This document shows, piece by piece, positions 35,275 through 42,719 of a stretch of DNA of 64,000 nucleotides (its first letter is position 1; every line of letters begins with the position of its first letter). Source of the stretch: a virus. Location: the IMG/VR virus record IMGVR_UViG_3300009124_000001. One strand, 5' to 3'. Position numbers and translations under genes: made by a program. A model generated the notes under the pieces. It was not told the origin of the DNA and did no database searches. It was given only the letters and a program-made list of their open reading frames with translations.

Positions 35275-35389
35275 TGAACTAGAAGTAAGACCATCAGGGG
35301 AATGGTGGAGTTACTATTTCCTTGCTACCCTCAGGCAAGGATATGAGAGACGGATTGGTAATCCTGCCTAGTCTCGGTCAAGCGGCAGG
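35275..35389 (-). ncRNA. PhotoRC-II-like structured psbA 5' leader
   Basis: CCTGCC/GGCAGG stem with GAGAC pairing to downstream GTCTC (pseudoknot), CCTTGC/GCAAGG stem, ACCAT/ATGGT stem; position upstream of phage psbA; family assignment from memory. Confidence 0.75.
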
Positions 35390-35436
35390 AGTGTTACACG
35401 ATGTTATGAAATGTAACATTTCGTAACCCGTTGACC

Positions 35437-38980: not shown

Positions 38981-39052
38981 TGGGAGATACTGGGATCGAA
39001 CCAGTGACATACTGCGTGTAAAGCAGGCACTCTACCTCTGAGTTAATCTCCC
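38981..39052 (-). tRNA. tRNA-Val (TAC), no encoded CCA
   Basis: GGGAGAT...CTGC TTTACAC GCAG...GGTTCGATCC...ATCTCCC A. Confidence 0.93.
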
Positions 39053-39055
39053 AAA

Positions 39056-39127
39056 CAGGTCCACTAGGAATCGAACCTAGAACATCCGCTTAGAAGGCGG
39101 GGGTTATATCCGTTTAACTATGGACCC
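39056..39127 (-). tRNA. tRNA-Arg (TCT), no encoded CCA
   Basis: GGGTCCA...CCGC CTTCTAA GCGG...GGTTCGATTCC...TGGACCT G. Confidence 0.93.
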
Positions 39128-42144: not shown

Positions 42145-42255
42145 TTATCTCTTTGTAGTGCAGTGACCTAGACTACAAAGTTGCGCGTCATGAAGTTTTT
42201 TCTTTTTGATCTCTTGCTGTTTAATGACAGTCAACCAATTAAGATTTTTCTTCAT
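42145..42255 (-). CDS. 36 aa basic micro-protein (not in ORF track)
   Basis: MKKNLNWLTVIKQQEIKKKKLHDAQLCSLGHCTTKR; ATGA overlap with the DUF4278 stop and GGAGG Shine-Dalgarno. Confidence 0.6.
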   Translation of the reverse strand: MKKNLNWLTVIKQQEIKKKKLHDAQLCSLGHCTTKR

Positions 42256-42392
42256 TTCTCCACCTCCACCTTTTTGGTGTAGACAGTACCACGATAGTTC
42301 ATGGTCATGGTCTTAGCCTCGTGCTTGTGCTCCTCTTTTGTATTATAAGGAATGCCACGATAGGCAGTGTGAGTGCTATAAAGATTAAGCAT
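42252..42392 (-). CDS. DUF4278-family protein
   Basis: Two YRG motifs (AYRGIPY, NYRGTVY); CAGGAG Shine-Dalgarno. Confidence 0.8.
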   Translation of the reverse strand: MLNLYSTHTAYRGIPYNTKEEHKHEAKTMTMNYRGTVYTKKVEVEK

Positions 42393-42424
42393 CGTACTAA
42401 CTCCTGAAAGTAAGGGATTGTTGC

Positions 42425-42683
42425 CCCGTTCCTTCAATCGTTTGCGTCCTAGTCATCAAAACATGCTGGGTCAGTATGATTGATCCATTGAATTAGGATG
42501 TCACTCTTCTCAGCAGGTGTGAATAGAGTTGTATCCTCTAATCCTTCTCTCAACCATAGAAAATCTTCACACCGAAGAAAATCTTCGGGTGGGACATGCA
42601 TGGCAAAGACTGTCAGTAATGACAACATAGGATGAACGCTCCGTTCCGCGACTTACTTGCGTCACCCGAAGGTGATGAACGAT
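42425..42683 (-). ncRNA. double glutamine riboswitch (glnA-type) with an ORF inside P2 of the second aptamer
   Basis: Two CGTTCA-P2-CGCAA...GGAACG units; E-loop AGTA/GAA; located upstream of DUF4278. Confidence 0.8.
42449..42628 (-). CDS. 59 aa ORF nested in the riboswitch P2 loop (not in ORF track)
   Basis: MLSLLTVFAMHVPPEDFLRCEDFLWLREGLEDTTLFTPAEKSDILIQWINHTDPACFDD; GGAG 10 nt upstream. Confidence 0.7.
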   Translation of the reverse strand: MLSLLTVFAMHVPPEDFLRCEDFLWLREGLEDTTLFTPAEKSDILIQWINHTDPACFDD

Positions 42684-42689
42684 GGTATT

Positions 42690-42719
42690 AGCATACCATC
42701 TACTATTTATACTTGTCAA
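42690..42719 (-). promoter_or_regulatory. early (TTGACA-18bp-TATGCT) and late (TATAAATA) promoters of the riboswitch unit
   Basis: Motifs read directly. Confidence 0.7.

Follow-up and report, generated by a model that had tools for sequence, protein, structure and literature searches.

Two glutamine aptamer cores nested on one shared helix: a composite sensor proposed for the leader of a cyanophage micro-operon

Introduction

Tandem arrangements of glutamine-sensing glnA RNAs have been known since 2010 (Weinberg 2010, PMC2864571), and 157 doublets and 4 triplets have been catalogued as 'pseudo-cooperative' (PMC9481103). The tandem units lie a few nucleotides (nt) apart, with no expression platform identified and no known benefit (PMC5066625); the passage of that review citing Ames & Breaker 2011 describes them as binding non-cooperatively in vitro. 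A 2017 census recorded two glutamine aptamers in cyanophages (PMC5473149). Here we analyse one such doublet, located in the leader of a small-gene operon in IMG/VR record IMGVR_UViG_3300009124_000001, of which a stretch of 64,000 nt (the window) was examined, and argue that its two units form a single RNA in which a circularly permuted core is nested within a canonical one.

Described glutamine riboswitches account for the parts of this RNA, whereas their arrangement differs. In glutamine-I (glnA RNA, RF01739; Synechocystis gifB leader, PMC6212724), the same P1, A, P2, CGSAAGUA, P3, GAAG and linchpin are found as in the outer core of the window's element, the linchpin being the ligand-capping pair between a junction base and the base just 3' of GAACG (G23-C60 in the structure summary of PMC11477058). 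The gifB leader likewise stands at the 5' end of an mRNA encoding a DUF4278 (IF17-like) protein. This family, which glutamine riboswitches control in cyanobacteria, marks IF17, the inactivating factor of glutamine synthetase, and the IF17 leader acts as an ON switch responding to glutamine (PMC6212724). In the same structure summary (PMC11477058), P3 of glutamine-I is a hairpin of ~10 nt, whereas here it is a helix of 5–8 base pairs (bp) that opens onto the permuted core. Glutamine-II (Downstream-peptide motif, RF01704; PMC6698751) shares the pocket of our inner core (CGUUC, CGCA, GGAACGG), has an equivalent long-range C:G pair (C19:G41), lacks an E-loop and is associated with the same DUF4278 gene. 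Its P1, however, arises by pseudoknot pairing with a 3' hairpin loop, whereas the inner core described here forms the corresponding helix, P1', as a simple hairpin and borrows P3 from its neighbour.

The catalogued tandem riboswitches consist of the same two CGUUC...GAACG units a few nt apart and are regarded as separate aptamers, whereas the units described here are interlocked by a common P3, a split E-loop and crossed linchpins. The 2010 glnA alignment (PMC2864571) contains these very metagenomic doublets, with the units aligned separately and the other unit left in the flank. Published accounts treat such doublets as separate tandem aptamers; no published description of a nested or permuted glutamine fold was found in the literature covered, which did not include the text of Ames & Breaker 2011. 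The tandem glycine riboswitch (PMC5066625, PMC5666159) likewise joins two homologous amino-acid aptamers to a single expression platform. Its aptamers lie side by side with tertiary contacts, whereas here one permuted core is inserted into a helix of the other. The mgtL sequence in the Mg2+ leader of Salmonella mgtA is a short open reading frame (ORF) for a regulatory peptide, placed in alternative stem-loops, and its translation competes with RNA folding. The window's leader likewise carries an ORF within a sensing RNA; here it is a conserved gene for a protein of 50–65 amino acids (aa), placed inside a metabolite aptamer helix.

Results

A shared P3 helix joins the two units

The doublet occupies minus-strand positions 42683 to 42425; a small gene located downstream of nrdB lies on one side of it and a series of micro-ORFs on the other. 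It is the only doublet within the 64-kb window, the motif GGAACG-N(1-10)-CGTTCA occurring once against 0.02 expected, and the entire element measures 255 nt with its gene included. A first-pass annotation of the sequence had named the motifs of both units, and all of them are present on the minus strand where it placed them (CGUUC_1, AGUA-AGUCG, GAACG-GAG-CGUUC at 42646-42634, CGAUU-GAAG at 42440-42432, and GAACG_2; Table 1). Each CGUUC/GAACG unit carries half of the expected elements: unit 1 has AAGUA and no GAAG, and unit 2 has GAAG and no GUA. The annotation had proposed that AGUCG of unit 1 pairs with CGAUU of unit 2, rebuilding an AGUA/GAA E-loop context, and that this pairing should be conserved among phage homologs.

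Relatives were collected in two pattern scans of viral contigs, each returning at least 120 loci; 369 phage records match the riboswitch region. The general layout reads CGUUC-A-P2-CG[C/G]AAGUA-X-CG-GAACG-(3-6 nt)-CGUUC-A-P2' and continues, after P2', as CGCAA-A-Y-GAAG-GAACG, where P2 and P2' are each either a short hairpin or an insert of 120–220 nt. Among the matches listed for the first scan, 64 loci carry an insert in the inner P2' only, 9 in the outer P2 only, 21 in both and 30 in neither. Among isolates belonging to several cyanophage genera, the core does not vary, the ORF is conserved and P2 shows covariation.

Across more than 240 viral loci, X and Y can be sorted into several classes of complementary strands, all of them in a common register: AGUCG/CGACU (of which the window's CGAUU is a variant), AGUCA/UGACU, GGUCG/CGACU, AGCCGAC[U/A/G]/[A/U/C]GCCGACU, AGACAAC/GUUGACU, GGACGG/CCGCCC, GGACGACG/CGCCGCCC, CGCCGAC/GCCGACG and AAACGAC/GUUGUUU. 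In a compact set of 66 distinct doublets, five of the eight P3 pairs change on both sides, pair 1 occurring as AU (52), GC (7), GU (4) and CG (2), and pair 8 as GC (23), UA (19) and AU (6). The whole nested structure is 94.2% paired in this set, against at most 52% when the partners are slid, and its covariation score was reached by none of 500 shuffles. P3 covariation was likewise evident in a smaller set of 29 sequences. The proposed pairing between units, and with it the E-loop context, is thus borne out by the relatives.

The commonest class has the quasi-palindrome AGCCGACU in two almost identical copies, one as X and one as Y, which suggests that P3 originated from two duplicated mini-hairpins that swapped strands. 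The first row of the supplementary glnA.sto file of PMC2864571 is a singlet reading AAGUA-CGCCGACU-GAAGGAACG. Such a sequence is what would remain if a deletion between X and Y, as direct repeats, removed the inner core, and it hints that nested and single forms may interconvert by recombination.

Approximately 15 true nested doublets were recovered from a cellular-genome collection, all of them in oddly binned contigs of metagenome-assembled genomes, contigs of single-amplified genomes or contigs of ~190 kb (L246-L279), under labels that include Acetobacteraceae, Dehalococcoidia, Poseidoniales, Nonlabens and Prochlorococcus. One of them (L279) matches Prochlorococcus phage P-HM2, and these contigs look like mis-binned cyanophage sequence. 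With the narrow pattern used, no clear chromosomal doublet was found in cellular genomes.

Linchpin pairs cross between the units

The linchpin contacts provide a second line of covariation, separate from P3. The outer linchpin joins C42659 to G42426, and the corresponding alignment columns (39 with 143) hold GC in 37 and CG in 29 of the 66 compact doublets, 100% paired. For the inner linchpin (column 62 with column 120), the pair is GC in 60, CG in 2 and another combination in 4, or 94% paired. When the linchpins are assigned side by side, within units, pairing falls to 45.5% and 43.9%, which is the shuffle level. A large clade has CGG as its unit-1 junction and CGC as its unit-2 junction, with C following GAACG_2 and G following GAACG_1; in the window's clade both linchpin pairs are C and G, and in rare sequences (L061, L127) the inner linchpin is flipped alone. 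This crosswise covariation places the unit-1 junction with GAACG_2 and the unit-2 junction with GAACG_1.

Folding energies point the same way, the nested constraint giving -76.2 and the tandem constraint -73.4 kcal/mol. In the unconstrained minimum free energy (MFE) fold, the P1' hairpin is already present together with the outer P1 and the long-range P2'. The nested, permuted connectivity, which the first-pass annotation had offered as one possible fold, is therefore well supported in the alignments by two independent lines of covariation, P3 and the crosswise linchpins.

Genuine side-by-side doublets, each unit with its own GUA-hairpin-GAAG and GAACGC, occur in the same viral collection (L186, L187, L225) and represent a type distinct from the nested ones. 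By that definition the window's doublet does not belong with them, since each of its units contributes half an E-loop and one P3 strand. As a separate observation, the side-by-side doublets L186, L187, L225 and L227 precede a different small gene (MTKYEEARLIRR...) and not DUF4278.

A canonical outer core and a probable circularly permuted inner core

The Rfam consensus of RF01739, CGUUCA-P2-CGGAAGUA-[P3]-GAAGGAACG, is fitted element by element by the composite of the two units, so that the 5' half of unit 1 and the 3' half of unit 2 together read as one textbook aptamer. CGUUC_1, A, P2, CGCAAGUA, P3, GAAG and GAACG_2 make the outer core, as predicted from its elements, a complete glutamine-I (glnA RNA) aptamer. 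Its E-loop elements, CGSAAGUA in J2/3 and GAAG in J3/1, flank the covarying P3, a statement about sequence and not about geometry. Rfam scores unit 1 only, at 30.1 bits for RF01739 (threshold 35) and 24.4 for RF01704 (threshold 33), and skips the model's P3 hairpin; the RF01739 score falls below the gathering threshold, and the model is unable to span the 209-nt insert that forms the P3 'loop' of the outer aptamer.

The inner core, as we read it, is circularly permuted: it runs from P1' (GAACG_1-GAG-CGUUC_2) through A, P2', CGCAA-A and the 3' strand of P3, and returns through CG to GAACG_1. It departs from the canonical 5'-to-3' order P1-P2-P3-P1, its P1' being shut by a loop of 3–6 nt and its P3 being open; the cyclic order is canonical, opened at P3 and closed at P1. 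All pocket elements are retained (CGUUC, A, CGCAA, GGAACG). It has no E-loop, the junction being CGCAA-A with CG after X and neither GUA nor GAA, and in this respect it resembles glutamine-II. The first-pass annotation had both cores sharing P3 together with its E-loop; the shared P3 stands, whereas the E-loop belongs to the outer core alone, the inner core having an invariant A and a CG junction at the other end of the helix.

A protein gene inside the inner P2' helix

In the window, the inner P2' contains an ORF of 59 codons whose AUG (42628-42626) lies in the 5' strand, overlapping UCCUA, and whose UAG stop (42451-42449) lies in the 3' strand. Variable columns are distributed over the three codon positions as 24/14/43, of 60 each, and the ORF is, by this codon signature, a real and conserved gene. 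Across 132 distinct long inserts the five closing pairs of P2' are 97% paired, against a shuffle mean of 73%, with several pair types, and in the window's element the helix extension GUUGUC/GAUGAC covaries among isolates. Placement of the reading frame is precise: in 121 of these 132 inserts it starts 3–5 nt after CGUUCA_2 and ends at a U|GA or U|AA stop whose U is the final base of Y and whose remainder lies in the E-loop. The window's insert belongs to a group of six with UAG in the 3' strand of P2'. Where the outer P2 carries an ORF, its start likewise lies in the stem, and its stop falls within the junction or close to it.

From these start and stop positions it follows that a ribosome translating the nested gene must open P2', and in most relatives the junction and P3 as well; the folded RNA is predicted to bury the AUG. 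The GGAG at the P1' loop possibly doubles as the Shine-Dalgarno (SD) sequence of the nested ORF. Proteins encoded within the aptamers (P2 and P2' inserts of L007-L245) have a hydrophobic N-terminus, a Cys near residue 11–20 and a second Cys followed by W/F-D-A-N/K-D. Because the W/F-D-A-N/K-D residues are encoded by the conserved aptamer bases GGACGCAAACGACUGA, this stretch carries protein and RNA codes at once.

The first-pass annotation had also reasoned that neither sensor could be completed until the nested ORF was transcribed. The fold agrees with this, since none of P2', the inner junction, P3 and the outer P1 can form without the 3' segment.

Downstream gene and expression platform

The gene following the leader encodes a micropeptide that scores 22.5 bits against Pfam PF14105, under the 25.3 cut-off. 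In relatives, five of nine sampled downstream ORFs pass this cut-off, and YRG occurs in 173 of 181 distinct ones. The stop of the DUF4278-like gene overlaps, as ATGA, the start of a 36-aa ORF (42145-42255, minus strand), and in a metagenomic sequence from 2010 the DUF4278 gene is followed by a similar ORF rich in lysine; on these grounds the operon probably holds at least three micro-genes.

In the CGG sister clade (L127-L245, junction CGGAAGUA), the outer P1 is followed by C-UCUU(U) in 83 of 93 distinct tails, all 83 having AAGGAG within 45 nt, and in folds of the tails the linchpin base and the SD sequence are both paired in 84 of the 93. In these folds, where C-UCUU pairs with AAGGAG, the anti-SD strand opens with the linchpin base itself, which gives a clean modelled expression platform that fits ON control. 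In the window's clade, a small hairpin begins at the linchpin G and covaries among isolates.

Weighing the alternatives

With a probability of about 0.74, we favour the reading that the leader is one composite glutamine sensor of a cyanophage micro-operon, with nested cores at opposite ends of P3, and not two aptamers in series. Several observations weigh against it. The four P1 strands (CGUUC and GAACG, each twice) are invariant, so that their partners are assigned from connectivity; GAACG_1 was moreover fixed by the search pattern, two further viral scans aimed at P1' variants at its positions 2 or 3, with any CGNNC_2, gave no hits, and no variants of CGUUC_1 or GAACG_2 occurred among odd or truncated loci. 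The inner linchpin is unpaired in 4 of the 66 sequences, a C.A and an A.C mismatch persist in the commonest P3 class, the P3 of the window is a short helix of five pairs, of which one is G.U, and the free MFE does not exactly reproduce P2 and P3. Many of the covarying sequences are related, the cell counts exceeding the number of independent events; at least three linchpin switches were counted. Rfam scores remain below threshold, the lack of an E-loop makes glutamine binding by the inner core a matter of analogy with glutamine-II, and tail folding gives no readable direction of control in the window's clade.

The invariance of P1 bears most directly on a strand-swapped, pseudoknotted doublet, in which P3 and the crosswise contacts are real and P1 is local (CGUUC_1/GAACG_1 and CGUUC_2/GAACG_2), giving pockets of mixed strands. 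Because the P1 strands do not vary, such a fold fits the covariation as well as nesting does; CGUUC_1 could pair with GAACG_1 as soon as the latter is transcribed, unit 1 alone scores 30 bits for RF01739 and 24 bits for RF01704, and the glutamine-II aptamer is a strand-swapped dimer in the crystal (PMC6698751). Its topology, however, would have to be knotted. CGUUC_2 is fixed to the distal end of P3, since only one A separates it from P2' and no spacer separates P2' from the inner junction; GAAG ties GAACG_2 to the proximal end, and nesting preserves all canonical strand connections, with a constrained energy 2.8 kcal/mol better, tertiary terms left out; we consider strand swapping quite improbable. 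An ordinary side-by-side tandem of two independent, somewhat degenerate aptamers, whose X/Y complementarity would be a by-product of the repeated quasi-palindromic mini-hairpin AG-CCGA-CU, agrees with how these doublets have been entered and named: the 2010 glnA alignment treats the units separately, and reviews call glutamine doublets tandem (PMC9481103, PMC5066625). In the commonest class, X and Y are indeed near-identical direct repeats, each of which could form its own 2-bp hairpin. The last P3 pair nevertheless covaries between units (U:A, A:U, G:C), whereas a within-unit mini-hairpin would require only U and A, and other classes are true complements and not repeats (AGUCG/CGACU, AGACAAC/GUUGACU, GGACGG/CCGCCC). 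Together with the shuffle-level pairing of side-by-side linchpins and the missing E-loop half of each unit, both halves being present in each unit of the real side-by-side doublets, this makes independent tandem units very hard to sustain.

A different kind of alternative accepts the nested fold and regards it as a mere scaffold, in which one core, probably the E-loop-less inner one, has lost glutamine binding and the ORF occupies a tolerant loop with no regulatory coupling. P2 loops are unconserved in the family, ORFs are found in the outer P2, the inner P2', both or neither, and the reported lack of cooperativity of tandem glutamine aptamers in vitro (the PMC5066625 passage cited above) would be in keeping with it. 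We nevertheless regard it as unlikely: the inner core has its full set of pocket elements and a covarying linchpin, and the ORF is precisely placed, from its AUG just after CGUUCA to a stop at the border of P3 and the E-loop.

Genomic setting and upstream region

The window derives from a T4-like cyanomyovirus in which nrdA, nrdB and transaldolase genes are present, and the best matches to the riboswitch region are Synechococcus phages with 72–80% identity. Other RNAs in the window are four tRNAs, arranged as two pairs (425-577 and 38981-39127, both on the minus strand), and a PhotoRC-II RNA (35306-35403, minus strand, 56.4 bits), all ordinary for T4-like cyanophages. Coordinates of the doublet and its surroundings are collected in Table 1.

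Table 1. Predicted elements of the doublet RNA, its promoter and the genes it contains or precedes, listed in the direction of transcription (window coordinates)
Feature	Position	Strand	Remarks
Sigma-70-type promoter: TTGACA, 18-nt spacer, TG-TATGCT	42690..42719	(-)	10/12 matches
CGUUC_1, 5' strand of outer P1	42677..42681	(-)	Invariant; partner GAACG_2 assigned from canonical connectivity and crosswise linchpins
A between CGUUC_1 and P2	42676	(-)	
Outer P2 hairpin, UCACC-UUCG-GGUGA	42662..42675	(-)	4/4 pairs change on both sides, 100% paired
Outer junction, CGCAAGUA (CGCAA-GUA)	42654..42661	(-)	Fits Rfam consensus CGGAAGUA; linchpin base C42659; GUA supplies the 5' half of the E-loop
5' strand of shared P3, X = AGUCG	42649..42653	(-)	Covaries with Y
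CG spacer (42648-42647) and GAACG_1 (42646-42642)	42642..42648	(-)	Almost every parsed locus has CG after X; GAACG_1, in inner P1', corresponds to the 3' strand of canonical P1
GAG loop closing inner P1'	42639..42641	(-)	Loops of 3-6 nt in relatives; G42641 is the inner linchpin base
CGUUC_2 (42638-42634), second strand of inner P1', and A (42633)	42633..42638	(-)	
5' strand of inner P2', UCCUA	42628..42632	(-)	Helix prolonged by GUUGUC (42626-42621) pairing with GAUGAC
Nested 59-aa gene inside inner P2'	42449..42628	(-)	phrog_13397, E = 5.8e-32
3' strand of inner P2', UAGGA	42447..42451	(-)	P2' pairing statistics
Inner junction CGCAA (42446-42442) and A (42441)	42441..42446	(-)	C42444 is the linchpin base
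3' strand of shared P3, Y = CGAUU	42436..42440	(-)	Covaries with X
GAAG, 3' half of E-loop	42435-42432	(-)	
GAACG_2, 3' strand of outer P1	42431-42427	(-)	Followed by outer linchpin G42426
Presumed expression platform	42390..42426	(-)	Small GGG/CCC hairpin from the linchpin G, U-rich tract, SD AGGAG (42405-42401), AUG (42392-42390)
Regulated gene, 46-aa DUF4278-like (IF17-like) micropeptide with two YRG motifs	42252..42392	(-)	phrog_5049, E = 2e-11

The predicted promoter puts the transcript start a few bases 5' of the outer P1 (CGUUC_1); of 209 distinct related loci, 100 have TTGAC[AT] in the 60 nt upstream. An inverted repeat of 8 perfectly matched bp, GATGGTAT-GCTA-ATACCATC, spans 42681-42700, flanking the -10 box and ending on the first C of CGUUC_1. 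Upstream inverted repeats in related loci differ in sequence (GGTCTA/TAGACC, ATGTGTT/AACACAT), and the best stem averages 5.6 bp there, compared with 3.8 bp in shuffled sequence. An NtcA box was considered and set aside, since the inverted repeat around the -10 box misfits GTA-N8-TAC in most loci, the window included, as judged by eye from examples. A T4-type late promoter was likewise rejected: the exact motif TATAAATA lies at 42711-42704, between the -35 and -10 boxes, and would give the RNA a 5' hairpin, but of 209 related upstream regions only 29 hold a TATAAATA-like motif, the rate in shuffles being 10%, and such motifs are thus no general feature. The window's match may be due to chance.

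Discussion

The nested reading answers an anatomical question, in that the doublets would be one interlocked two-pocket RNA with one expression platform. In the mechanism that we propose, the two ligand pockets lie at opposite ends of one P3 helix, the inner one without an E-loop as in glutamine-II, and by analogy with the described aptamers both would bind glutamine. Translation of the DUF4278 (IF17-like) gene downstream would be governed by the outer P1 and its linchpin, in the manner of the gifB leader, while the folded sensor would conceal the start of the nested gene. Each ribosome crossing that gene would unfold P2', the inner junction and P3, and both sensors would thereby be reset. The cooperative response that the first-pass annotation suggested for two coupled glutamine pockets would be a further hypothesis; tandem glutamine aptamers a few nt apart reportedly bind without cooperativity in vitro (Ames & Breaker 2011, as cited in PMC5066625).

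Taken together, these steps would amount to a translation-coupled switch between two genes, in which the glutamine-bound fold hides the P2' gene and opens the DUF4278 gene, whereas unliganded or nascent RNA loads inner-gene ribosomes that erase both pockets. We put this forward tentatively, as a possibility that is less likely to be right than wrong. If true, this RNA would be the first natural metabolite aptamer to combine a circular permutation with a protein-coding gene carried inside it, and it would let the phage read host nitrogen status and ribosome traffic on one RNA.

With the nested fold, the riboswitch repertoire would gain a natural circularly permuted aptamer and protein genes housed in aptamer helices. 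Standard scans have missed the element, which is sub-threshold in Rfam; the two cyanophage glutamine aptamers of the 2017 census (PMC5473149) compare with the 369 phage records that match here. IF17 inhibits host glutamine synthetase, and the position of the sensor ahead of an IF17-like gene points to phage control of such peptides in step with the nitrogen status of the host.

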